64,000 nt of DNA. Origin: Nitrospina sp. LS_NOB (GTDB lineage Bacteria; Nitrospinota; Nitrospinia; Nitrospinales; VA-1). Numbering within the stretch: position 1 is the stretch's first letter; every line of letters begins with the position of its first letter. Below the pieces are notes generated by a model. It saw only the letters and a program-made list of their open reading frames with translations. It made no database searches and was not told the origin of the DNA. A program made the position numbers and the translations under genes. The stretch covers positions 324,875 through 388,874 of the forward strand of contig LFLA01000021.1 of NCBI GenBank assembly GCA_001542995.1, in the 5' to 3' direction. This document shows positions 49,634-61,822 of the stretch, piece by piece.

Positions 49634-50464
49634 TTGGTGAAGCAGTCGCCCATCTGTTGCGCTTTTCAGGAAGAGGAATTAAGGCACATTTATAGTGTCG
49701 GCAACAAGATGCGCCTGAAAAAGGATCAGGTGCTTTTTTCAGAAAATGCCGTGCAGGATACCCTGTACATCATCCTTTCTGGAAGAATGGAAGTGTATAA
49801 AAAACAAATTGCCATTCGGGAAGCCAGTGATTTTTTGGGTGAAATGGCCGTACTGGAATCCAAACCCCGTTCAGCCAGCGTCCGGGCTCTTACTGATACA
49901 GAAGTGCTGGAAATTAATAAAGAAACCTTCTTCGATTATTTTGTTTCGAACCCGAAAATAGTTTGGGAGATTTTAAGGTCCATCTCTTCAAGAAATAGGG
50001 AGGACCTGAATGTCATCGTCGCCAGCTACCAGGAAATCAGAAACAGCCGGGAAAAATACCGTAGGGTGGTCGATGCAACCTCCGATATCATTATCCAGAC
50101 CAATCCAGAGGGTAAAATCATTTTTGCCAATAAAGCGATCAGTTTTTTAGGGTTTGATGTGTTTGACCTGATCGGAAAGGACTTTGAGAGTTTTTGCGAG
50201 GAAAAGCTTAGTGATACCAGCAGAGCCTATATTTTAACCCAGCGTGTCGGCCCCAGAACCACAACCGATCTGGAAATTTCCTTGAAAGTGAACGAACAGT
50301 CCAACCTGTACGATGTCTGTCGCAGCATGAGCTTTATGATGACCGCTACCGGGATATGGGATGTGCCGCAGGAAATGGTAATAAAAAAGGGCGTCAAAAA
50401 AGAATTTCAAGGCACCCTGCTGATCCTCCGAAAAGAAAAATTGGGAAGCTACCGACTGGTTTAA
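49634..50464 (+). CDS. cyclic-nucleotide-binding domain protein with C-terminal PAS-like domain
   Basis: cNMP motif FLGEMAVLESKPRSASVRAL. PAS-like YRRVVDATSDIIIQTNPEGKIIFANKAISFLGF. TTG start in a very AT-rich upstream region. Confidence 0.7.
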   Translation: MVKQSPICCAFQEEELRHIYSVGNKMRLKKDQVLFSENAVQDTLYIILSGRMEVYKKQIAIREASDFLGEMAVLESKPRSASVRALTDTEVLEINKETFFDYFVSNPKIVWEILRSISSRNREDLNVIVASYQEIRNSREKYRRVVDATSDIIIQTNPEGKIIFANKAISFLGFDVFDLIGKDFESFCEEKLSDTSRAYILTQRVGPRTTTDLEISLKVNEQSNLYDVCRSMSFMMTATGIWDVPQEMVIKKGVKKEFQGTLLILRKEKLGSYRLV

Positions 50465-50524
50465 TCAAACCCCAAAAGGCGCCTCCCCTCCTATTTTCAG
50501 AACGAAGAAAAATTTCCTGAATTT

Positions 50525-51049
50525 TTAGATAGTGGTTATAGAATTCAAGATTTGGGATTCAGAACTCTCACCATAATTTGTCAGAATCGCCTGAACTCTG
50601 GATTCGATCAAAGCATCCAGGTTTGTGCTGGATCGCAGGAGCGAGTTTAAATCTTTTTGCCGGTTTACCCCATCACTCAAGAATTCGACGATACTGCTGG
50701 TAGAAATCCCCGATCGGTTAAAAATGGTTTGCAGTTGGGTCAAGAGTTCGTCCTGCCCCTCTCCGGCCCTGGCCCGGTCCGCAATCAATTCCGTAGCTGA
50801 GAGTTCTCCGTTTTTGTCAGAGTCGATGGAGTCAAAATTGTCCAGCAGGTTCTGACCGCTGCTGGTCGCGTCTATTTTTTTCTGGATTTCGTCGACATCT
50901 AATCCGCCTGAGTGGTTGCTGTCATCTTTGGGGAACTGCTGAAAAATCCGCTGGGTGAAACTGTTAAGAATGGTTGAACCGAGTCCTCCACTGCCTCCGA
51001 TCATTGGTCGCCCTCCACCAAAAGGATGTTTAAAATTGGGCCATTCCAT
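50525..51049 (-). CDS. EF-hand calcium-binding motif protein
   Basis: Canonical loop DSDKNGELSATEL and a second DSNHSGGLDVDEI. Gly-rich N-terminus. Confidence 0.65.
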   Translation of the reverse strand: MEWPNFKHPFGGGRPMIGGSGGLGSTILNSFTQRIFQQFPKDDSNHSGGLDVDEIQKKIDATSSGQNLLDNFDSIDSDKNGELSATELIADRARAGEGQDELLTQLQTIFNRSGISTSSIVEFLSDGVNRQKDLNSLLRSSTNLDALIESRVQAILTNYGESSESQILNSITTI

Positions 51050-51202
51050 GCCCTATACATCCTTAACGGCATCCGTGAAAAAGGCCATAAGCTTTTATTT
51101 GAAAAGGGTTATAGCAATCGCAAAATCAAGGGTTTTCCCACCCCCTATAGCAGGGGCAGGCAGATTGCCATAGCTTAATCTCGGGCCCAATCGGCCTTCG
51201 GC

Positions 51203-52219
51203 TTAGTGAGCCGAGTACTCAAACATGCGTTCTACGCATTGGAGGGAGCGCTGCTGGGTTTCCGGGTCGAGGGTGATGGTGTTTTCGGGACCGGGGTTTT
51301 CGAGGACGTTGAGTATATCTTCCAAAGAATTGGACTTCATATATTTGCAGAGTGTACAACTTCCGGCAAAGGTTTTTTGCGGGAACTCGGATTGCAGAAC
51401 ACCGGTCAACCCGCACTCTGTCACCAGAAAAAAGGAGTCGCCGTTGGATTCCCTGACATGGTTGAGCATCTGGCTAGTGCTTCCCACATAATCGGCCTTG
51501 CCCACCACTGAAGAACTGCATTCGGGGTGAACGAGAATTTCCACACCCTCAAAGTTTCTCCGCACCTGGTCTATACTTTCCGGCTGATATTCTTCATGAA
51601 CGTAGCAGGTGCCATCCCAGAGTTGGATATCCTTATTCAGGCCCTTGGATTTGAAATGGTTGATCACATTTTCACCCATGAGCCGGTCGGGCAGGAAATA
51701 AATCTTGTTATTGGGAATTTTTTCAATGATAGCGTAAACATTCGAAGAGGTGACGCACACATCACACTGGGCTTTCACCTCGGCGGTCGTGTTGATGTAG
51801 CAGACGAATGTGTGATCGGGAAACTCTTTGCGGAGCCTTATAACATCTTCCGCCGTTATGCCATCGGCCAGGGAGCAACCGCCATTGGGATTGGGATCAA
51901 GCACAGTTTTTTGAGGATTGAGAATCTTGGCGGTCTCTGCCATAAAACGAACCGCTGCGAACACAATAACATCGGCATTGGATTCCTTAGCTTTTTTCGA
52001 CAGGCCATAAGAGTCGCCGGTAAAATCGGCGACACTGTAATAAATTTGCGGCGCGACATAATTATGCACGAGGATGATGGCATTTTTTTCGCGCTTGAGC
52101 TCTTCAATCTTTCTGATGGTGGGGAGCAACAGCTCGCAATTTTCCTGAGTGAACCGGCAAATCGGATTGCCCACCTGAATATCTTTAAGCTTTTCGTATA
52201 ACTGTTCTGCGGTAACCAT
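51203..52219 (-). CDS. nadA: quinolinate synthase
   Basis: ILVHNYV...DFTGDS, FMAETAKIL, HPEC..., conserved Cys ligand contexts (CYVHEE, TECGL). Confidence 0.93.
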   Translation of the reverse strand: MVTAEQLYEKLKDIQVGNPICRFTQENCELLLPTIRKIEELKREKNAIILVHNYVAPQIYYSVADFTGDSYGLSKKAKESNADVIVFAAVRFMAETAKILNPQKTVLDPNPNGGCSLADGITAEDVIRLRKEFPDHTFVCYINTTAEVKAQCDVCVTSSNVYAIIEKIPNNKIYFLPDRLMGENVINHFKSKGLNKDIQLWDGTCYVHEEYQPESIDQVRRNFEGVEILVHPECSSSVVGKADYVGSTSQMLNHVRESNGDSFFLVTECGLTGVLQSEFPQKTFAGSCTLCKYMKSNSLEDILNVLENPGPENTITLDPETQQRSLQCVERMFEYSAH

Positions 52220-52223
52220 TTTT

Positions 52224-52568
52224 CTAACCCGGCGGCCAGTTCAAGGCGCGACCGCCTAAAAGATGATAATGAATATGATACACCGACTGCCCGGCCCCGG
52301 CACCACAATTGACCACCAGCCGAAACCCTGATTTATCGAGTCCCCTCTCCTTCGCCAGTTGGTTTGCCACACTGATCACCGAACCCATCAACGTATGATC
52401 CTTCTCCTCGACATCCAGCAAGGTAGCCTGATGGATTCGGGGGATGATCAGGATATGCGTAGGAGCTTGCGGGTTGATATCATTAATCGCGAACAAGGTG
52501 TCCGATTCATAAACCTTATCTGAAGGGGTAGTCCCCTCGCTGATTTTGCAGAACAGGCAATCACTCAT
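52224..52568 (-). CDS. HIT-family (histidine triad) nucleotide hydrolase
   Basis: MSDCLFCKI..., triad GQSVYHIHYHLLGG. ATG 52568 overlaps the pafA-like stop by 8 nt (ATGAGTGA). Confidence 0.88.
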   Translation of the reverse strand: MSDCLFCKISEGTTPSDKVYESDTLFAINDINPQAPTHILIIPRIHQATLLDVEEKDHTLMGSVISVANQLAKERGLDKSGFRLVVNCGAGAGQSVYHIHYHLLGGRALNWPPG

Positions 52569-54063
52569 AAGATTTTTTTCCGTGTCGCTCCGGGTTTCCC
52601 ATATCCTGTTTATTTTCCTGGTGGGGGAGAGAATCAAACTGCTCAAGATGCTCTATGATTTCTTCTTTATAGGAGATGAATGGATCGAGCATCAGAAACG
52701 GTTCGTCAGTTTTGCTCAGGCGAAATCCGATCCAGTCTATGAGATAACCCATGTGAGAATGCTGGTTCATGAGCCTTTTAACAAGCTCTCCCCGGCCATG
52801 CGCCCGGGTTCCTCTTGGAGGATTGACTTTTGAGAAGTCGACGGCCTCATCGGTGGTTTTGCGGTAACCATCGCCACTGGCTTCCAATCCCCAGAACAGA
52901 CCGGTTTCCTTATTCAGGTTATGGTATTCCAGATCCAGGCTTTTGAGCCAGGGGTCGTGCCATTCCAGGTTTTCTTCGTTTCTAAACTCGTTGAGCATCC
53001 AATACTTGCTGGCCCAGTCCACTCGGCCGATCACCGCTTCCGGTCCTTTAGGTAAATCGGTCAAGACCGATTCCCAGCCCTCCAGAATCCAGTCGGTCTC
53101 CCGGTTTGTCCCAGCCAGATGTTCCTTACAGGTATTTAAAATATCCCATTGTAGTTCCAAAGCGGTGGAATATTTTCCCGAAGCCAGTTTCACCTCCCAT
53201 TTAAAATCCGGATCGCGAGAAATAGAACGCATGGCAAAAACCGAGTCCGCAAGAATCCATTCCCGTTTGGCGACCCCCAACTGCATGATTTCCAACATGA
53301 GGGTTGTGGTTCCCATCTTCATGGCGGTGGCAAACTCACTCATCGTCGAGTCACCGACCAAAAGATGAATGCGCCGGTATTTGCTCGGGTCCGACAACGG
53401 CTCGTCGCGGGTGTTGACAATCGCCCGGTTATATTGCACCCACCGGTAAAATTCATTGGGAATGTGGTCAGCCCTTTGTGACAGCTGAAAGTTCACCTCA
53501 TCGTCCTGATTTTCATAAGGTGTGATGCCATCCCAATCCTGAAACGGGTGGGGATCGCAGGAACCGATGCGGCCCGCACCGCAATAAATCAGTCGAGTAG
53601 TTAAAAAGGAAGAAAGCAGTTTCAGGTTGTCGCGCTCATCGAAAGGGAATCCTCTACCGACCAGATAATTCTCGTGGCAGCCGAACGTCGCGCTGGTTTC
53701 AAGATCCACATTGTTCTTGATGAACGAAACATGATCGGCCCAGCCCAACTCCTCCACCGCTTCCTGAATCAGCGTGTCGCCGGCGCGGTCAAAAGTCACC
53801 AGGTCAACAAGATTGGAACATTCCGGAGAGGCGTATTCTAAATGCCCCATGTCGAGATACAAGCGCCCACCGTTAAGCAGAAACCCGCCGTTACCGGGGG
53901 GCTCATCGTTAGCGCGGTAGTGAAGGTCCAGCACACCATGATTTTTTGAGAAAATATGGTTCTTGACCTTGTTGGCCACTTCCATCGAGTCGAGAGGGAA
54001 CTCCGCATCATTTTTGATCAGCAGGCCGTATTCCGTTTCGATGCCGTAGATTCGTTTTTTCAT
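52561..54063 (-). CDS. pafA: Pup/UBact ligase PafA homologue
   Basis: MKKRIYGIETEYG..., short N-terminal region then LNGGRLYLDMGHLEYASPEC (as in PafA [22 protein letters not shown]). Lacks the long acidic insertion seen in the Dop-like paralogue. CHENYLV. Confidence 0.85.
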   Translation of the reverse strand: MKKRIYGIETEYGLLIKNDAEFPLDSMEVANKVKNHIFSKNHGVLDLHYRANDEPPGNGGFLLNGGRLYLDMGHLEYASPECSNLVDLVTFDRAGDTLIQEAVEELGWADHVSFIKNNVDLETSATFGCHENYLVGRGFPFDERDNLKLLSSFLTTRLIYCGAGRIGSCDPHPFQDWDGITPYENQDDEVNFQLSQRADHIPNEFYRWVQYNRAIVNTRDEPLSDPSKYRRIHLLVGDSTMSEFATAMKMGTTTLMLEIMQLGVAKREWILADSVFAMRSISRDPDFKWEVKLASGKYSTALELQWDILNTCKEHLAGTNRETDWILEGWESVLTDLPKGPEAVIGRVDWASKYWMLNEFRNEENLEWHDPWLKSLDLEYHNLNKETGLFWGLEASGDGYRKTTDEAVDFSKVNPPRGTRAHGRGELVKRLMNQHSHMGYLIDWIGFRLSKTDEPFLMLDPFISYKEEIIEHLEQFDSLPHQENKQDMGNPERHGKKSYE

Positions 54064-54097
54064 TTCAGAGCGTCTTGTTCGTCAGAGAGAATCATTG

Positions 54098-54211
54098 CTA
54101 GTTTACCCCTTTACCCCTTCGGGGCATGAGACAAATGAAGAAATATCACAGGCTCACGAAGGCTGAGGAAAAATATCACGACCACCGGTTGCTCACTGGC
54201 ACCACGCCTAG
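54098..54211. repeat. 106-bp repeat insert (two R1-type units) bracketed by CTAG ... CTAG between prcB and pafA
   Basis: CTAG 54098-54101. ttaccccttcggggcatgagacaaatgaagaaatatcac (54110..54148). aggctcacgaaggctgaggaaaaatatcacg (54149..54180). CTAG 54208-54211 is the prcB stop. Confidence 0.7.
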
Positions 54212-55011
54212 TGGCCGCGTTTTAAAGAGGACTTGCATAGTTTCGCCAGATCCTTATCGTTCAAAAACTGGTACCCCGCCTCGGTGACCAATGCCACGGT
54301 AGGAAATATTTCATCTTCCGGACGGGCTTTGCCGGTTGCAGAATCAAACTGCGCCGCAGTCTGCAAAAGCCGAATGGCCAAGGTGACCGCATCGCTTTCC
54401 GATCTTTCTACCAGGGGCTTATCTCCCCAGAGATCTTCATGTTCCAGAATTCCCCGAATGGTCGGCGAACCAGAGCCGGTCGCGGTATGGGTACTGATCC
54501 TGAAATCGGCTCCCAACATATCGTAAAAATGTATCGCCGCCTTTTTACATTTCAAGTCGTAAGTAGCAAATATTGGACTCACCGCTCCCAGCCCCTGCAC
54601 CGCCATCCCGACATTCTCTTTCAGCAGTTTTGATAAGGCGCGGATTTTCCCTTCCACACTCATGGTTTGCATCTGTGACCGTCGGTAGTATTCAAAATTA
54701 TGCGTGAGAACCCGTGCCATCTCGAAAGCCGTAGCAGGAACCCCGGCAATCGCCATGAGCGTATAATCGTCGATGGGAATGACCTTGTCGCAACGTTCAT
54801 ACATGATACTGTTGCCCGCCGTGGCCCGTCGGTCACCGGCAACAATCACGCCATCCTTAAAGTGGAAGGCGAGAACCGTAGTGCCCTGGGTTACTGTAAT
54901 GCCGCTTGGCGCCTGCGAAGAATCGATGCGAGCATGCCAGCGATAGCCGGATTTTTCCAGTAGCTCGAAAAAATCTCCGGGCGAAGTATGAGGATCTGTT
55001 TGAAAACTCAT
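54208..55011 (-). CDS. prcB: 20S proteasome beta subunit (bacterial type, with propeptide)
   Basis: Propeptide then ..TQG|TTVLAFHFKDGVIVAGDRRATAGNSI (Thr1 after Gly), closely parallel to actinobacterial PrcB. ATG overlaps the stop of the tag ORF (ATGA). Confidence 0.88.
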   Translation of the reverse strand: MSFQTDPHTSPGDFFELLEKSGYRWHARIDSSQAPSGITVTQGTTVLAFHFKDGVIVAGDRRATAGNSIMYERCDKVIPIDDYTLMAIAGVPATAFEMARVLTHNFEYYRRSQMQTMSVEGKIRALSKLLKENVGMAVQGLGAVSPIFATYDLKCKKAAIHFYDMLGADFRISTHTATGSGSPTIRGILEHEDLWGDKPLVERSESDAVTLAIRLLQTAAQFDSATGKARPEDEIFPTVALVTEAGYQFLNDKDLAKLCKSSLKRGH

Positions 55012-55184
55012 TGACCGGTTCTCTGTTTGTATTTTTCAGATTGTTTCGGGTCCACCTTTTTCATCCGCTTCAAAAGATTATCCTTTCCCGGCCGTGAAGG
55101 TTCCGGGCTGGAAGGGCCGGAATCATCGCGATCTGGACTGGTTTCTTTTTTTTCTTCCCGTCTCAGGGGATCATTCATTTCCAT
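55008..55184 (-). CDS. Pup-like small protein modifier (UBact-type), 58 aa, C-terminal ...KYKQRTGQ
   Basis: AAGGAG 8 nt upstream of ATG 55184. MEMNDPLRREEKKETSPDRDDSGPSSPEPSRPGKDNLLKRMKKVDPKQSEKYKQRTGQ*. Disordered charged N-terminal half, helical basic C-terminal half, terminal Gly-Gln. Sits between the proteasome subunit genes. Confidence 0.75.
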   Translation of the reverse strand: MEMNDPLRREEKKETSPDRDDSGPSSPEPSRPGKDNLLKRMKKVDPKQSEKYKQRTGQ

Positions 55185-55234
55185 GGGATCAACTCCTTTT
55201 GTTGCCAGGCCGTTTCTGCCTTATCACCCGGGCA

Positions 55235-55969
55235 TTAACCGACCGATGATTTTAACTTACCTATCTCTTCTTTCGTAAGCGCTCTGTAAATGGCTCTTCG
55301 CTCCACCTTTCCAGATAAAACAGCAGCCTCAAGATACCATTGATCAAAAGCCTCTTTCAAAGTCTTGGGTATATTTTCATCGTCTTCTTCCTGCTTTCTA
55401 CTTTCATCCCAAAGGCGGCAGGTTTCCTTTAAAGCTTTATTCAGAGGAAACGTCGCAAAGGGCGTGTCCTGAATTTTCTTCTGCACCTCCTCCATAACTT
55501 TTTCATTACCGGCGATAACGGTTCCATTTTTAAATGTTTCCCAATGCCCATCATAGTTCACACGGAAAAAGTGGGGATGGCCATCACCGTCCAGTTCAGC
55601 AAGAAGAAGGCGGATGATATAAGGAGCCCGTTGGATTTCCTCAAAATTCTGTTTGAGTGCGGGAGCGATGCCAAACTGTAGCAGCCTTGCCAATGTCACA
55701 TCTTGAGCCGAACGGTTGAATCCTTCCAGATGCGCCATATCCAAAAGCGTCATGCGCAACCGCTCCACATCAGCAGGGTGGCCCACGCCGCCCAGGGCGA
55801 TGCGGTCATAGACTTCGAATATCTTGCCCGGCTGGGGGGCAAACCCCATAATCAGCACCCCTTCATTGAAAGGAACCGACAACACCGGCTGGCCCATTTT
55901 CAGCTTTTCCTGAACATAACTGTGGCGGGTGGAAACCGCTTCCATCCAGCGATACGGCTCTTCAAACAT
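55235..55969 (-). CDS. prcA: 20S proteasome alpha subunit (bacterial type)
   Basis: ..QPVLSVPFNEGVLIMGFAPQPGKIFEVYDRIALGGVGHPADVERLR...YIIRLLLAELDGDG..FFRVNYDGHW parallels the actinobacterial PrcA layout. No Thr1-type active site. Confidence 0.8.
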   Translation of the reverse strand: MFEEPYRWMEAVSTRHSYVQEKLKMGQPVLSVPFNEGVLIMGFAPQPGKIFEVYDRIALGGVGHPADVERLRMTLLDMAHLEGFNRSAQDVTLARLLQFGIAPALKQNFEEIQRAPYIIRLLLAELDGDGHPHFFRVNYDGHWETFKNGTVIAGNEKVMEEVQKKIQDTPFATFPLNKALKETCRLWDESRKQEEDDENIPKTLKEAFDQWYLEAAVLSGKVERRAIYRALTKEEIGKLKSSVG

Positions 55970-56114
55970 TTCCCCCTCTTCCTTTTACGTTTTGAACCAA
56001 TTTGTGGAAGCCGAGAAACTTTTAAATCTCTTCACTCTTCCTCTGTTGTTCTAAACCAAGTTATCCCTTAAAGCTGGGGATATTTTTAAATCCTTCAAAT
56101 TTCCTATTTTGTCT

Positions 56115-57575
56115 TCAAACCAATTGTTTGCTGGAGTTAAGAACCTCTTCAACCTCTTCGGAGCTAATGACTCCGGTCAAATCAAGAATCTCTCCGTTCA
56201 TAAACTCAACTCCGGTCCAATGAATACTTTTTATTTTTTCCGCTCCTTGAGCCACCGCCTGCCCTCTTATCTGAGCGCGGGTTCCTACCGGGGGCGACTC
56301 AACAGCCCGGGCGATTTCTTCTTCACTGAGCAGGGAAAAAACATCTCCCTCCTGCTGCAATCCCCGATACAATCCGCGATCAGGGTCCAGATTATGGTAT
56401 TCCAAATCCAGGCTCTTGAGCAAGGGGTCATCCCAGCCAATGCCCTCGGACTGCATGAACCCGGCAAATAGTTTTTCCTTGATCGCCCAGTCAATGCGAT
56501 CCGAAAGTTTTTCCGGACTGTGCCGAAGTTCATCCAGTGTCTTTTTCCATTCCGCAAGAATCCAGTCCCACTCGCGATCCTTTCCGGCAAAGGCTTTTTC
56601 CACCACTTCCAGATACGCTTCCTGAATCTCAAGAGCCGTGATAGTACCACCAGTCTTGCGACGTAAAACTGCAGTTTTGTCGAGAGACACTCTCAACACA
56701 TCGGCCACTGGGTCCGCCAATTCCAAATGGAGAAGTTTCTCCCCACGGGCGATCAGATTGAGAACCAGCGATGTACTCCCCACCTTCAGGGCCGTGGCAT
56801 AAGCGGACATATTGGCATCGCCGAGAATTAAATGCAAACGCCGATACCGACTGCTCACCGCATGCGGTTCGTCCCGGGTATTGATGAGGGGACGTTTCGT
56901 CATGGTCTCAATGCTTAAAACTGTCTCGATAAAGTCGGACCGCTGGGCCAACTGCAATCCTTGAAAATCACTAGCGCTTTCCGATCCCACTTTTCCTGCC
57001 CCGGCATACAACTGGCGCGTCACCAGAAAAGGAGCCAGCCCTTTTACCACATCTTCAAAGGGAGTTGCTCTGGGGATGAGATAGTTATCATGAGTTCCAT
57101 AACTATGGCCGCTGTAATCAGTATTATTTTTGAACACCTGAAGGGGTTTGCCCTCCAGCTCGCGGTTGCGAATGGCCGCGCATTCGGCGACAATCCGCTC
57201 GCCCGCCACATCATGTGCCACCAGAGATAACACCGACCGGCATTCCGGGGTGCTGTATTCCGGATGAGTATGATCATTATAAAATCGGGCACCATTTGTC
57301 AAAACCCGGTCGCACTTCATATCTAAATAAGAATAAGGCCTTTTACGATCTTCGGCGCAAAAGGCATCTTCTTCCTCATCCTGAGCCAAAGACCCCACCC
57401 GAAACCCACGCATATCCAGATGCGAGTTCTCCTGCGAGTAGGCCCATTTGCCAAAAACACTTTTGCGCTCGCAGGCCTTTAAAAGTTTCATGGACTCTTC
57501 AACCGGGTCGGAATTTTCCATATCTTCCCGGACTATCCCATACTCGGTCTCCATACCCAGGAGAGAAACACTCAT
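56115..57575 (-). CDS. dop: deamidase/depupylase Dop homologue
   Basis: MSVSLLGMETEYGI..., long acidic insertion (LDMRGFRVGSLAQDEEEDAFCAEDRKRPYSYLD) before LTNGARFYNDHTHPEYSTPEC, like the Dop loop and DHAHPEYSAPEC. ATG overlaps the mpa stop (ATGA). Confidence 0.85.
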   Translation of the reverse strand: MSVSLLGMETEYGIVREDMENSDPVEESMKLLKACERKSVFGKWAYSQENSHLDMRGFRVGSLAQDEEEDAFCAEDRKRPYSYLDMKCDRVLTNGARFYNDHTHPEYSTPECRSVLSLVAHDVAGERIVAECAAIRNRELEGKPLQVFKNNTDYSGHSYGTHDNYLIPRATPFEDVVKGLAPFLVTRQLYAGAGKVGSESASDFQGLQLAQRSDFIETVLSIETMTKRPLINTRDEPHAVSSRYRRLHLILGDANMSAYATALKVGSTSLVLNLIARGEKLLHLELADPVADVLRVSLDKTAVLRRKTGGTITALEIQEAYLEVVEKAFAGKDREWDWILAEWKKTLDELRHSPEKLSDRIDWAIKEKLFAGFMQSEGIGWDDPLLKSLDLEYHNLDPDRGLYRGLQQEGDVFSLLSEEEIARAVESPPVGTRAQIRGQAVAQGAEKIKSIHWTGVEFMNGEILDLTGVISSEEVEEVLNSSKQLV

Positions 57576-59188
57576 ATGATAGACCTGCGAATCGTATTTT
57601 CGGTTGCCTTATCCGATTCGCTGGGCTTTCTTACCCGCACAACATTTTTTGATTCCATATCCAAAAGCTGAAGCCAGTCTTCCATATTGGATTCGGCGGG
57701 AAGCAGGTTGCCTTCCTCAAATTCAGCCTCCAGTGAAACAATAAGATCGTCCACCGTCATACACAGCGTTTCACCCTGAATCGCCCGTTCAATGGCTCTC
57801 TCTTTAGCGCGTTTCATGATTCCCTCAATGACCGCGCCGGAAATGAAATCGTTCCAATACAGTTTCTTCGTGCCACCGCTTCTTAAAGTCAACACCAGCA
57901 CTTCCTGTTTCGAACTGCGGTCAAACAGACGATCCAGAAAGGGTTCAGCCATGGCGTCAAAATCTTCATGTTCGCGGGGAAGCCCTTCTTTCAGATAAAC
58001 ACGCAGGATGGCTTTAGACTCTTCGCGGTTGGGACGCGACACTTTGATCTTCCTGTCAATTCTTCCGGGCCGGATGACAGCCGGGTCGATCAGGTCGGGC
58101 CGGTTGGTCGCCAGAATCACCACCGTTTCGCGAAGGGACTGGATGCCATCCATCTCCGCGCAAAACATGGGGACCACCGTGTTGCTGATGTTCGATCCGC
58201 GCCACGCCTGCCGGATTCCCAAAATTGACTCCGCTTCATCTATAAAAATGAAAGGGATCTGACCTTTTTCTTTATAGTCCCGGGCTTTCTTAAAAATTTC
58301 ACGGATTTTACGTTCCGATTCCCCCAGCCACATATTGAGGATCTCCGGTCCTTTGACATGAATGAACCGGCCCTGAAGTTCGGAATCTTCCTGCTCGGAA
58401 AGTTTGCGGATCACTTCGGTGAGAATCGCTTTTCCTATGAGAGTTTTTCCGCAACCCGGAGGACCATAAAACAAAAATCCTTTGGGCACCTGATATTCCA
58501 TCTGGCTCAGAATTTCTTTGTGCAGGAGCGGATATTCGAGGACTTTGCGCACCTCTTCTTTTACTTTTTCTTGTCCGCCCACTTGTGACCATTCCACATG
58601 TTCATAATCGTCTTCAACCAGAGTGCGAGACTCGCGTTTAGAAAGTTTGCCTAAAATAACTCTTTGGTTACTGTCGAGAAAAATTTCTTCCCCCTCTTTC
58701 AGCCCATCTTCATCCAGACCATCTCGGACCAAAACAATCGTCTCGGTATTGCCAGTCGCCGCCTGCACCAGCCATTGCCCGCCAGCAAGCTTTCCGGAAA
58801 TTTTTGCAAGTGGCCCCTGAGTGGGAAAAGGTAGCAGTGCAATCACCACAAATCCTTCATTCAGCGCCACCTGATCACCGGTTTTCAATCCCTCATTTTC
58901 CGTAAGTTCCGGGACGACCGCAGCCTGGTATTCCGTGCCTCCGGAAACCAGACGCACCAGACCGTCCTCCCCCTGGCCCAGAATCGTGCCGATCCGATGG
59001 GCGGGAGACTTTAACTTTTCAATGGCTTCCTCCAAGGTCTTGATTTTCAATGCATACTGCTGGGCAGACTGCTGGGCCTGGAACAGAGCATCCCTAAGAT
59101 CAAGAATCTTTTCCTGCAATTGGGGTCGATCCTGGGTTTCATTTAAAACCTGGTCGATCAACTCTACGATATGGGTCTGGTCTCCCAT
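57572..59188 (-). CDS. mpa: proteasome-associated AAA+ ATPase (Mpa/ARC homologue)
   Basis: N-terminal coiled coil (LQEKILDLRDALFQAQQSAQQYALKIKTLEEAIEKL), OB-like region, Walker A GPPGCGKT, Walker B FIFIDEAES, second region of homology. Confidence 0.9.
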   Translation of the reverse strand: MGDQTHIVELIDQVLNETQDRPQLQEKILDLRDALFQAQQSAQQYALKIKTLEEAIEKLKSPAHRIGTILGQGEDGLVRLVSGGTEYQAAVVPELTENEGLKTGDQVALNEGFVVIALLPFPTQGPLAKISGKLAGGQWLVQAATGNTETIVLVRDGLDEDGLKEGEEIFLDSNQRVILGKLSKRESRTLVEDDYEHVEWSQVGGQEKVKEEVRKVLEYPLLHKEILSQMEYQVPKGFLFYGPPGCGKTLIGKAILTEVIRKLSEQEDSELQGRFIHVKGPEILNMWLGESERKIREIFKKARDYKEKGQIPFIFIDEAESILGIRQAWRGSNISNTVVPMFCAEMDGIQSLRETVVILATNRPDLIDPAVIRPGRIDRKIKVSRPNREESKAILRVYLKEGLPREHEDFDAMAEPFLDRLFDRSSKQEVLVLTLRSGGTKKLYWNDFISGAVIEGIMKRAKERAIERAIQGETLCMTVDDLIVSLEAEFEEGNLLPAESNMEDWLQLLDMESKNVVRVRKPSESDKATENTIRRSII

Positions 59189-59437
59189 GAATAAGTCCTT
59201 TATTTTGGTTGTGAACTCAATTGTATGAACAAAAAATTTTATAAATCAAGTCAATTTTCTCAAAGGTTTAGTAGAGAAAACCTTGTCATTATATTAGGAT
59301 GAAGGCTTCTATTGATTATTATCCTGAAAAGCTTTTCGCTCAACTTTTTTGTATTCCTACAGAGCCCGGCAAAACCCCAGGTGGCGCAAGACCACCTTTA
59401 ACACGAAAGTGATTCCTGACAACAAGTTTTTGATTCT

Positions 59438-60748
59438 ATGACCTTTGCGAACAACAAAACCCCTATCGAAAAATGCATCATCAGTTTCAGCCATAACAAA
59501 TATTCCACCCGTAAAGAAGCTGATACAGTGAGCCTTGCCAAGGCAGAGCGTGAAATTGCCGCCAGGAAAAATGGCATCAGCCATCTTCTTCTAAGAGCTG
59601 AGGATGATGACATCGATCGACTGAAATTTCTTTTTTTGATCCGGGGAATTCCTATCATGTGTTACGCGCTGGGGAACCTGCTGAACTCCAGCTTGCGCGA
59701 AATCGTGGTCGTCGGCTCTGAGGAAGTCAAAAAAGTTATGGATCGCTTCCTCGACATTGTTGGCACCTGCGGAAAAACCATTCGGTTTGTCCGGGAAGAT
59801 GCTCAACACCTCAACCTGGTTCACACCATGAATCTGGGCCGGGAGTTGCTTTCCCCTTCACCCGACGAACTGGTTCTGTTCCAACCCGGTGACCTGCCTT
59901 TCCTATACGACCTGGAAAAAGTCTTGCACTTTCCAGACAACAAAAAATATAACCTGGTGCTCTGGCTGAACTCCCGGCAAACGATGTTCCCGGATTTTGC
60001 AAAGAATCCGGAGAGCGAGTTCGTCAAGCGCAATTACCATTACCGCTCTTTTAGCGAAAATGAAGATAGCCTGCTGGATCTCAAAGAACCCAATTTATAT
60101 CCCATTAATTTTGCAATGATGGATTCGGATATCATTGACCACCTGCACTCTTCCCGCAAAGATGGACAAATAATTCACGCGGGCATCCAAGTTGCCTTGC
60201 AAAAACCTTTACGCTTACTCAAGGTTCTGCCTTATGTCATGGACCATCTGTTGACGTTCCGGACGAATGTAAACCGCATCAGGCCCGGCGACCGGTATGA
60301 TTTCGGCATGTCCCGAAAAAATTTCCATAAAGGCATCTCCCGCTTGCTCAATACTCCTTTGACCACCACATTGCATGACGACCCGGCTTTCGTTTCCGAT
60401 GTCGATGCACTAGAAGATTGGGAAGATTTTGAGTCTCTCACCCATCATGCGGAAACAACCCATGGCCGGGAGGGACTGGAGACCATCCACCCGTTTGGAA
60501 AATCCCTGACCCAATTTCGTGAAGAGGGCATGCCTCAGTTGAAAACAGAGATTCCCATGTACCGGGATTTCCCTTCATACCTCAACTCTATTTATGAAAC
60601 GCTCGAGATGGGTTATGTACCCTTTGACAGGGACAACCAATACATCTCGCCCAATGCGAACTTGAAAGAAGTGGAAATCGCATACCGCTGGTATAAACAA
60701 AAATGTGCCCTATTGAAACAACCTCATGAAAACCGGCAACAGGTCTGA
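59438..60748 (+). CDS. hypothetical protein with MobA-like nucleotidyltransferase (GT-A) N-terminal region
   Basis: IRGIPIMCYALGNLLNSSLREIVVVGSEEV...LFQPGDLPFL resembles NTP-transferase family cores. The C-terminal 250 aa are unassigned. Start uncertain. Confidence 0.4.
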   Translation: MTFANNKTPIEKCIISFSHNKYSTRKEADTVSLAKAEREIAARKNGISHLLLRAEDDDIDRLKFLFLIRGIPIMCYALGNLLNSSLREIVVVGSEEVKKVMDRFLDIVGTCGKTIRFVREDAQHLNLVHTMNLGRELLSPSPDELVLFQPGDLPFLYDLEKVLHFPDNKKYNLVLWLNSRQTMFPDFAKNPESEFVKRNYHYRSFSENEDSLLDLKEPNLYPINFAMMDSDIIDHLHSSRKDGQIIHAGIQVALQKPLRLLKVLPYVMDHLLTFRTNVNRIRPGDRYDFGMSRKNFHKGISRLLNTPLTTTLHDDPAFVSDVDALEDWEDFESLTHHAETTHGREGLETIHPFGKSLTQFREEGMPQLKTEIPMYRDFPSYLNSIYETLEMGYVPFDRDNQYISPNANLKEVEIAYRWYKQKCALLKQPHENRQQV

Positions 60749-60865
60749 CCGGAAAAACCACTGGCGTTATCCCGAGACCCGCTTTCTGTAAACCAAAAAT
60801 AACGCTATAATAGTAACTGTTATTTTACAGGCTAAAATTTAAGCACGCGGACAAACGAGCCAAAA

Positions 60866-61822
60866 ATGCCAAAATCATGGCAGGGAAATAGTTTATTAAA
60901 CCGAACCCGATTATCCGGGTTTATCCTTTTATCGCTGGGCATTCACATAACATCGGTGATCGCACACATGGCGATCCCCACCGCGAAAGAAGAAGTAAAG
61001 GGACCTCCCCCTATCCGAATAAAATATATCGAACCGGAGAAACCCCTGGCCTCCAAAGGCGGCCGAATCATCGATACGCCAACGCCACCCAAAAAAATCG
61101 AGAAACCCAAAAATAAAGATTTGCTGACAAAATTTGACAGCCGAGCCCACTCCAATATCAAAAAGAAAACTGCAAAAACCTATCAGCGCAAAAAAACCGT
61201 GGTACCGAAATCGAAAGGGTCGGTGGGCAAGACAGGTACCGCTCCTGTTCGAGAAAAGAAAGTCGCACGAAAACCTCAAAAACGGGCCGCGATTGTGCCG
61301 AGAAAAAGGCTCCTCCCGGAATCAGATATTGGAAAATATAAATCCGTTTTCAGAAAAAAACCCAAACCCACGACGTCCCCCGCCAACCCCAAAGCAGGAA
61401 CAGGTAGCGCTTTGGCTCTTCTGGACAGGTTTGACCCCGAACCCTTCGCATCGCTCAGCACAGAGGATCTCGAAAACATCGATGATGACGAACCGGTTTC
61501 CCTCGATACAACAGAAGTCAAATACGCTTCCTATTTTGCGAGAATTAAGCACCAGATTGAACGGGTTTGGATTTATCCCACCGAGGCGGCGCAACGCGGC
61601 ATCAGCGGCAATCTCACTTTGACGTTCAGGATTTCCAAGGACGGCACCCTTCTGGGAGTGCAGCTGTTGGATCAGTCAGGCTATGAAATTCTGGATGTGG
61701 CTGCGCTCAAAGCCGTGAAGGAAGCGGCCCCCTTTTATCCCTTCCCGGCAACCATTGACAGGGAGAAATTCTCCATCCAGGCCAACTTCGTTTACACCCC
61801 TCAATTCGAACCTGCCCGCTAG
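60866..61822 (+). CDS. tonB: TonB-family energy transducer
   Basis: N-terminal TM anchor, Pro/Lys-rich spacer, C-terminal TonB domain (YPTEAAQRGISGNLTLTFRISKDGTLLGVQLLDQSGYEILDVAALKAVKEAAPFYPFP). Confidence 0.8.
   Translation: MPKSWQGNSLLNRTRLSGFILLSLGIHITSVIAHMAIPTAKEEVKGPPPIRIKYIEPEKPLASKGGRIIDTPTPPKKIEKPKNKDLLTKFDSRAHSNIKKKTAKTYQRKKTVVPKSKGSVGKTGTAPVREKKVARKPQKRAAIVPRKRLLPESDIGKYKSVFRKKPKPTTSPANPKAGTGSALALLDRFDPEPFASLSTEDLENIDDDEPVSLDTTEVKYASYFARIKHQIERVWIYPTEAAQRGISGNLTLTFRISKDGTLLGVQLLDQSGYEILDVAALKAVKEAAPFYPFPATIDREKFSIQANFVYTPQFEPAR

Follow-up and report, generated by a model that had tools for sequence, protein, structure and literature searches.

A UBact-type gene lies between the proteasome subunit genes of a Nitrospinales operon

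Introduction

Genes of actinobacterial pupylation follow the order Mpa-Dop-tag-PrcB-PrcA-PafA, and the docking motif of the actinobacterial ATPase is GQYL. Actinobacterial Pup, for example Rv2111c of M. tuberculosis, is represented by PDB entries 3m9d, 4bjr and 7px9. A further family of small tags, UBact, was reportedly named by Lehmann, Udasin, Livneh and Ciechanover in 2017 (BBRC 483:946), and Nitrospinota is said to be among the phyla of the original description. Pup is biochemically characterised. For UBact, our searches of the open-access literature yielded no experimental work, and the mentions that we saw occurred only as a citation or in passing. A first-pass annotation of the DNA studied here had described the chemistry and the substrates of the tag as experimentally unexplored; the literature supports this statement, and it is true of the whole family.

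Two earlier analyses provide the background for our comparison. Iyer et al. (2008) predicted a 'bihelical unit plus extended tail' for Pup-like tags and, by means of profile searches, reported tags with G-[EQ] ends outside actinobacteria as Pup orthologues (PMC2588565). Barandun, Delley and Weber-Ban (2012) called the pupylation gene order 'rigidly conserved' (PMC3511204).

Results

Position of the ORF and its sequence signals

We analyzed a stretch of 64,000 nucleotides from Nitrospina sp. LS_NOB (contig LFLA01000021.1), which we call the window. The first-pass annotation had pointed to an unlisted 58-codon ORF on the minus strand, located between the proteasome subunit genes. We recovered the same reading frame, which runs from 55184 to 55008 with the ATG at 55184-55182, 58 sense codons and a TGA at 55010-55008. 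Its translation, MEMNDPLRREEKKETSPDRDDSGPSSPEPSRPGKDNLLKRMKKVDPKQSEKYKQRTGQ, is identical to the peptide that had been reported. The alpha-type gene (55235-55969) lies upstream and the beta-type gene (54208-55011) downstream. A strong AAGGAG, said to precede ATG 55184 by 8 nt, was found at 55198-55193, and the TGA indeed overlaps the prcB ATG as ATGA, as the prcB ORF (54208-55011) starts at A55011. These features are:

55008..55184, minus strand: UBact gene, 58 aa, R-T-G-Q end, TGA stop (ORF reading and PF20513/NF033388 matches)
55193..55198, minus strand: Shine-Dalgarno sequence AAGGAG, 8 nt 5' of the UBact ATG (read from the sequence)
55008..55011, minus strand: ATGA overlap of the UBact stop (TGA 55010-55008) with the prcB start (ATG 55011-55009)

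Joint translation of tag and beta subunit, possibly by translational coupling, is suggested by the ATGA overlap. Judging by match coordinates, many Nitrospinota loci probably have this 4-nt overlap too. It was absent in Nitrospirota loci, where the UBact and PrcB matches were approximately 20-500 nt apart. In the 14 kb around the UBact locus, the ORF listing contains 107 frames of at least 40 aa. The length of the ORF alone is therefore unremarkable, and the case for it rests on comparative evidence.

Family membership and conservation

The ORF was compared with curated protein families. It scored 71.8 bits (E 3.9e-20) against Pfam PF20513 UBact, for which the gathering score is 27.8 bits, and 73.8 bits (E 9.4e-21) against the NCBIfam equivalog NF033388 "ubiquitin-like protein UBact", for which the cut-off is 35 bits. 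Since both scores lie far above the curated UBact cut-offs, the proposed reading as a UBact-type tag was upheld by the two models.

Among 5.8 billion proteins searched, 173 UBact homologues were found. Among the 120 that were listed, PF20513 was present in all, the length was 58 aa in 99, and the C-terminus was RTGQ in 114 and RTGE in 6. Both the ORF and its terminal G-[QE], which the annotation expected to be conserved in related genomes if the reading was right, are thus conserved. Several of the listed homologues are already named 'ubiquitin-like protein UBact' in records of Nitrospina, Nitrospinaceae and Nitrospinota. An identical protein is encoded on 21 public contigs; the neighbouring genes agree in all four places shown, two of which lie on megabase-scale contigs. 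A genome scan detected a 100%-identical copy in the Nitrospinales MAG OZ253496.1. The best 80 UBact genome loci belonged to Nitrospinota and Nitrospirota, which are non-actinobacterial phyla.

Selection on the gene was estimated from 24 Nitrospinota UBact genes. We obtained a dN/dS of approximately 0.06, with synonymous sites near saturation and the protein barely changed. In an alignment of 27 diverse members, P24, R40, Y52, Q54, R55 and G57 are invariant. The N-terminal part varies, and approximately 40 C-terminal residues form the conserved core GPxxPDVxRPxxxxLLKRMKKVDPxQAKRYRQR[TS]G[QE]. The profile E-values, the conservation of length and C-terminus among homologues and the low dN/dS place the ORF above chance. 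These comparisons show that the gene is genuine, that purifying selection on it is strong and that it belongs to the curated UBact family.

The novelty of the ORF had been overrated, as the family is named, curated by Pfam and NCBIfam, and annotated in Nitrospina. The window's UBact has the small size, R-T-G-Q end, conserved core and Mpa/Dop/PafA/proteasome neighbourhood of the 2017 family (PF20513/NF033388). The protein does not differ from that family; only the local gene order does, with prcA upstream of UBact. We regard it as a typical representative of a known, database-curated family; the same protein is already present in public assemblies.

C-terminus and predicted shape

The window's UBact ends in ...Q-R-T-G-Q, directly followed by the TGA. 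The annotation had given R-[T/S]-G-[E/Q] as the ending of UBact proteins, and we compared this with the endings across the family. Searched exhaustively with HMMER, 1.84 billion cluster representatives gave 104 UBact matches, each of which stands for a 50%-identity cluster. RTGQ was found in 57 of them, RTGE in 24, RSGQ in 6 and RSGE in 5. The ending given therefore matches the family (92/104 representatives); among the remaining 12, most appear to be truncated or read through. Glutamine and glutamate endings coexist in the family. A split into PupQ and PupE has been described for Pup (PMC3511204), and the parallel dimorphism at the last residue of UBact is the strongest indirect argument that the chemistry is shared.

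We obtained an AlphaFold2 model of UBact using 40 homologues (mean pLDDT 66.5, modest confidence). The model contains no helix of at least 4 residues in positions 1-33 and two helices at 34-42 and 46-56. A disordered N-terminal half and a helical tail, both proposed earlier from composition, are consistent with this prediction: the former is predicted to be unstructured, and the latter to consist of the two C-terminal helices. The predicted arrangement, an unstructured N-terminus with two helices, also matches the bihelical-plus-tail prediction for Pup-like tags (PMC2588565). Residues 34-58 carry a net charge of approximately +6, as counted from the sequence.

Operon partners

The cluster consists of Mpa-like, Dop-type, alpha, UBact, beta and PafA-type genes, all on the minus strand. 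The partners of UBact are:

57572..59188, minus strand: Mpa/ARC-like proteasomal AAA ATPase, 538 aa, comprising a coiled-coil-like segment at the N-terminus, OB domains and an AAA domain
56115..57575, minus strand: Dop-type deamidase/depupylase homologue, 486 aa; 4-nt overlap of its start with the end of the mpa ORF
55235..55969, minus strand: proteasome alpha-type subunit, PrcA-like, 244 aa, upstream of UBact (profile and PDB matches)
54208..55011, minus strand: proteasome beta subunit PrcB, 267 aa; propeptide present, Thr1/Asp17/Lys33 site intact
52561..54063, minus strand: PafA-type ligase homologue, 500 aa (profile and structure-chain matches)

The ATPase matched the Pfam models AAA, Prot_ATP_ID_OB_N and Prot_ATP_ID_OB_C, the last of them without any stretch passing alone. 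It scored 380.7 bits against TIGR03689, below the equivalog cut-off of 504.75, and its residues 20-521 match M. tuberculosis Mpa (7px9_A). Its C-terminus is ...RRSII, not GQYL. An [S/Q]-I-[I/V] ending of the partner ATPase is conserved in Nitrospinota and Nitrospirota. Charge complementarity through the Mpa coiled coil was considered and rejected: the N-terminal segment 20-61 has a counted net charge of approximately 0, and there is no simple electrostatic story.

The alpha-type subunit scored 31.8 bits against the Pfam Proteasome model and 59 bits, below the cut-off, against 20S_bact_alpha; its best PDB matches were the alpha subunits of Rhodococcus and M. tuberculosis. PrcB reads ...TQG|TTVLAF, which makes T44 correspond to Thr1, D60 to Asp17 and K76 to Lys33.

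Both ligase-family paralogues matched the Pfam Pup_ligase model. The gene at 56115-57575 scored 509 bits against it, and 432.7 bits with the Dop model vs 352.7 with the PafA model; the NCBIfam equivalog cut-off for Dop is 492.3. Residues 5-458 match A. cellulolyticus Dop (4b0r), including the region of the Dop-loop (approximately 40 residues). The signatures of Dop are D-H, E-Y-S-T-P and the alpha-loop Phe (Hecht et al., Table 1, PMC7947786), and the protein has D101 at the position of the catalytic Asp followed by H102, then EYSTPE and the Phe of an alpha-loop 'DF'. The annotation had invoked an adjacent Dop homologue. A Dop-type gene is present in the cluster, but prcA separates it from the tag gene, so the two are not immediate neighbours.

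The gene at 52561-54063 scored 418.8 bits against Pup_ligase, and 317.5 bits with the PafA model vs 299.1 with the Dop model, both below the cut-offs. It matches C. glutamicum PafA (4b0t) over the full length and lacks the Dop-loop. Signatures given for PafA are L-D-V-G-S at the catalytic Asp, His and Trp in the alpha-loop, and E-Y-A-T-A (PMC7947786, Table 1). The window's enzyme has L-D-M-G and the His of 'ADH', without an extra residue after the Asp, while its motif EYASPE is a mixed Dop/PafA signature. The catalytic residues of the beta subunit and the signature of the Dop-type paralogue are intact, and the second paralogue appears to retain a PafA-type signature with the mixed motif described above. 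The six-gene set was present in nearly all of the 84 loci from Nitrospinota and Nitrospirota that were long enough to show it.

Comparison with Pup

The Pfam Pup model did not match the UBact ORF even at E<=10, and the Pfam scan returned UBact only; on the Pup side, the profile comparison thus did not bear out a relationship. No Pup chain was matched when the UBact profile was searched against PDB at E<=10. We aligned UBact with M. tuberculosis Pup by hhalign (the query sequence is identical to 7px9_G) and obtained a probability of 0.46% and E 0.13, which is not significant. This non-significant alignment lines up D-x-L-L and the Y-x-Q-[KR]-x-G-Q tail of both proteins.

The two tags resemble each other in several respects. 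Both are small, mostly disordered proteins that have two helices at the C-terminus (predicted in the case of UBact), both end in G-Q or G-E with a Q/E dimorphism at the last residue, and the Y-x-Q-[KR]-x-G-Q tail pattern is common to them. They also keep the same gene company (Dop, PafA, Mpa/ARC, PrcB/PrcA): the Pup-type neighbourhood of dop, pafA, mpa/arc, prcB and prcA was found at the UBact locus. The differences concern the third residue from the end, which is Gly in Pup and Thr or Ser in UBact, the partner ATPase, which ends in GQYL in the case of Pup and in S-I-I in the case of UBact, and the charge of the helical region. The latter, which in Pup binds the coiled coil of Mpa and the groove of PafA, is strongly acidic in Pup (approximately -10 for residues 34-64 of the M. 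tuberculosis protein, counted from the sequence) and basic in UBact (approximately +6). Recognition by Mpa, PafA and Dop is therefore not transferable residue for residue from the Pup structures.

The annotation had already noted that the ORF does not match the GGQ/GGE ending of actinobacterial Pup. This agrees with our reading, as the ORF ends in T-G-Q and only the final G-[Q/E] is common to both. We rejected the identity with actinobacterial Pup (no profile match, a TGQ and not a GGQ end, opposite charge). By profile, by the GG[Q/E] end and by the acidic helices, UBact is not a member of actinobacterial Pup as far as such comparisons tell; it works in the gene context of Pup and presumably would use the same chemistry.

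Gene order

The gene order was surveyed by tblastn of the window's proteins against 84 related loci. The order in the window is mpa-dop-prcA-UBact-prcB-pafA, and Mpa-Dop-PrcA-UBact-PrcB-PafA was also observed in its closest relatives (L001-L013 and L031). Nitrospirota and most Nitrospinota have the order Mpa-Dop-UBact-PrcB-PrcA-PafA. A similar ORF had been expected at the same position of syntenic loci. This was only partly the case: UBact is retained in nearly all of the loci, but its placement between the alpha and beta genes is lineage-specific. The order called rigid for pupylation loci (PMC3511204) is therefore broken in a Nitrospinales subclade, where prcA precedes the tag gene.

A second prcB-like gene (54-57% identity) was detected between dop and prcA in L010, L013 and L031. 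The copies of L010 and L031 have an intact G|TTV...D...K site, and the copy of L013 is a fragment. In the window, tblastn of the 145-nt spacer between dop and prcA revealed no trace of such a gene. One parsimonious history would be a tandem duplication of the UBact-prcB-prcA block followed by loss of the first UBact and the last prcA; the extra prcB would then have been lost as well in the lineage of the window. Duplicated or rearranged loci have been described in actinobacteria and Leptospirillum, where the second pupylation copy of L. ferrooxidans has a tag without GGE (PMC3511204); the window's relatives with an extra prcB (L010 and L031) or its fragment (L013) are comparable as duplicated loci.

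Non-coding sequence around the operon

Candidate promoter hexamers were found upstream of mpa:

59220..59263, minus strand: candidate sigma-70-like promoter hexamers, 10/12 and 9/12 consensus matches, weak

Promoter and terminator counts in the operon were no higher than in shuffles. For this reason the hexamers are only suggestive, and we make no claim of an internal promoter or terminator. No Rfam family was matched at E<=1 over 50000-61000, and a structured RNA or riboswitch in the operon was rejected on this basis. The 144-nt prcB-pafA spacer occurs once in the window, and we rejected a repeat or mobile element as its origin. It contains only two short inverted repeats and is not conserved in the relatives, in which spacer lengths vary widely. 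We left this stretch as a variable spacer.

Discussion

We consider it very probable that the ORF encodes UBact, a Pup-like tag of non-actinobacterial phyla, within a Nitrospinales proteasome operon, and that its mechanism can be described by analogy with Pup. According to this analogy, the Dop-type enzyme would deamidate the C-terminal Gln58 to Glu. The PafA-type enzyme would then phosphorylate the gamma-carboxylate of this Glu with ATP and join it to epsilon-amines of target lysines through an isopeptide bond. An Mpa-like hexamer would recognise the two-helix C-terminal part of UBact, thread the disordered N-terminus and feed the substrate into the 20S alpha/beta core, and the Dop-type enzyme could also remove the tag. 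Deamidation of the terminal Gln before ligation appears reasonable, since enzymes of the Dop type and the PafA type are both present.

Some observations point away from a Pup-like mechanism. There is no significant similarity between UBact and Pup, and the ATPase ends in ...S-I-I, not in GQYL. In addition, the PafA-type enzyme has a mixed signature near the catalytic Asp and scores below the PafA equivalog cut-off.

It is extremely improbable, in our opinion, that the frame is open by chance or that only non-coding sequence separates prcA from prcB. Short ORFs are plentiful (107 of at least 40 aa in 14 kb), but profile E-values near 1e-20, 173 homologues (among the 120 listed, 99 of 58 aa and all with RTGQ or RTGE ends), a dN/dS of approximately 0.06 and a good Shine-Dalgarno site at correct spacing all speak for a gene, and the profile matches, homologue conservation and dN/dS rule chance out. 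The relationship to Pup is more evenly balanced. We see about an even chance that UBact is a divergent Pup, whose separate name reflects drift and charge reversal after horizontal transfer of the operon. The neighbourhood is the same, with the order Mpa-Dop-tag-PrcB-PrcA-PafA in Nitrospirota and most Nitrospinota, both tags have two predicted helices, and the non-significant hhalign alignment brings together D-x-L-L and Y-x-Q-[KR]-x-G-Q. Moreover, tags of 50-90 residues with G-[EQ] ends from nitrospirae, verrucomicrobia and planctomycetes were recovered as Pup orthologues (PMC2588565). These similarities have to be set against the absence of significant profile similarity (hhalign probability 0.46%, E 0.13; the Pfam Pup model silent at E<=10; no Pup chain matched in PDB) and against the curation of UBact and Pup as separate families by Pfam and NCBIfam. 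A common origin of this kind would alter the label of the tag, not the mechanism.

The fate of the conjugates was also considered. UBact could be conjugated and yet serve mainly as a reversible regulatory mark or a proteasome-independent signal, not as a degradation signal, which we find improbable. The ATPases of both phyla end in [S/Q]-I-[I/V] and lack a C-terminus of the GQYL type, ATPases of proteasome-less actinobacteria have no docking motif (PMC3511204), and a removal activity of the Dop-type enzyme would make tagging reversible. However, the alpha and beta genes are located inside the operon, the active site of the beta subunit is intact and the tag gene overlaps prcB. The conserved hydrophobic C-terminus of the ATPase is easier to reconcile with a variant docking motif than with an ATPase that no longer docks.

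A more far-reaching proposal would combine two parts, namely that UBact recognition is mechanistically distinct from that of Pup, and that the operon of a Nitrospinales subclade was remodelled to alpha-tag-beta, probably by way of an intermediate in which duplication had produced two active beta genes. We think it rather unlikely that both hold together. For distinct recognition, UBact keeps only the Y-x-Q-[KR]-x-G-[QE] tail, which must enter the active sites of Dop and PafA, while its helices are charge-inverted (approximately +6 vs -10), its ATPase ends in [S/Q]-I-[I/V] and its ligase has a hybrid Dop/PafA signature. As for remodelling, such an intermediate would survive in relatives, and the tag gene overlaps the beta gene. 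If both parts were true, bacteria would possess a second, independently tuned solution to recognition between tag, ATPase and ligase.

In summary, the window's locus adds nothing new to the biology of the UBact family, and the experimental gap belongs to the whole family. An annotation length cut-off of 60 aa here conceals a genuine and conserved gene with a central part in the function of the operon. Specific to this locus is a single, evolutionary point, the departure of one Nitrospinales subclade from the supposedly rigid order of pupylation-type operons.

Gene order around UBact

We compared the proteins of the window with 84 related loci (L001-L084) by tblastn. In Nitrospirota and most Nitrospinota the order was kept as Dop-UBact-PrcB-PrcA-PafA, whereas the Nitrospinales subclade of the window (L001-L013 and L031, compared with L014-L084) had Dop-PrcA-UBact-PrcB-PafA. 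A published review describes the gene order of pupylation loci as "rigidly conserved" (PMC3511204). The genes concerned in the window are:

55235-55969 (-), prcA, alpha-subunit gene, upstream of UBact
55008-55184 (-), UBact

In the close relatives L010, L013 and L031 an additional prcB-like gene is sited between dop and prcA.

Second prcB-like gene in close relatives of the window
L010, 6327-7127: active site G|TTV...D...K intact
L031, 6387-7166: active site G|TTV...D...K intact
L013, 918-1283: fragment

Identity between the second and the main prcB-like gene of these loci was 54-57%, and no remnant of a second prcB was observed in the window. The second gene suggests a two-beta proteasome in these relatives. 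It also suggests duplication as a possible route to the rearranged gene order.

Spacer and flanking genes

Between prcB and pafA the window has a spacer of 144 nt (54064-54207), whereas just 19 nt separate the two genes in the near-identical L001-L005. Within the window the additional sequence is single-copy; Rfam gave no match for it, and L006, L007 and L011, where the prcB-pafA spacer also varies in length, do not conserve it. Three further genes were observed near the operon:

52224-52568 (-), HIT-family gene, 114 aa counted from its ATG
59438-60748 (+), gene of a 436-aa protein, divergent from mpa
50525-51049 (-), gene of a 174-aa protein with a pair of EF-hands (EF-hand_7, 31.4 bits)

The HIT-family gene starts 8 nt ahead of the pafA stop. 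A copy lies downstream of pafA in 22 loci, all of Nitrospinota type, whereas no Nitrospirota locus has one at that place. Either simple synteny within the phylum or a functional tie to an adenylate- or phosphate-handling ligase could account for this distribution. The 436-aa protein had no confident Pfam or NCBIfam family, with a weak NTP_transf_3 match below the cut-off; the position of its gene was kept in 23 loci, again all of Nitrospinota type. The EF-hand domain is uncommon in bacteria, and the EF-hand product was absent from the gene calls for the relatives L001-L004.

ATPase C-terminus, PafA-type enzyme and UBact tail

The Mpa-like ATPase of the window ends in R-S-I-I (57572-57600 (-)), and a C-terminal [S/Q]-I-[I/V] is kept at the same position in 41 loci across Nitrospinota and Nitrospirota. 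GQYL, the motif known from Mpa, is absent from this C-terminus. The [S/Q]-I-[I/V] terminus may be a variant proteasome-docking motif.

The PafA-type enzyme (52561-54063 (-)) carries a hybrid signature flanking its catalytic Asp (residues about 68-82). L-D-M-G is a PafA-like element, there is no extra residue after the catalytic Asp, and E-Y-A-S-P combines Ala as in PafA with Pro as in Dop. The PafA and Dop models gave near-equal scores.

Whole-sequence similarity between UBact and M. tuberculosis Pup was not significant. However, the UBact tail E-K-Y-K-Q-R-T-G-Q (residues 50-58; 55008-55034 (-)) and the Pup tail R-A-Y-V-Q-K-G-G-Q have Y-x-Q-[KR]-x-G-Q in common. This pattern may be the portion which both UBact and Pup offer to the active sites of Dop and PafA.
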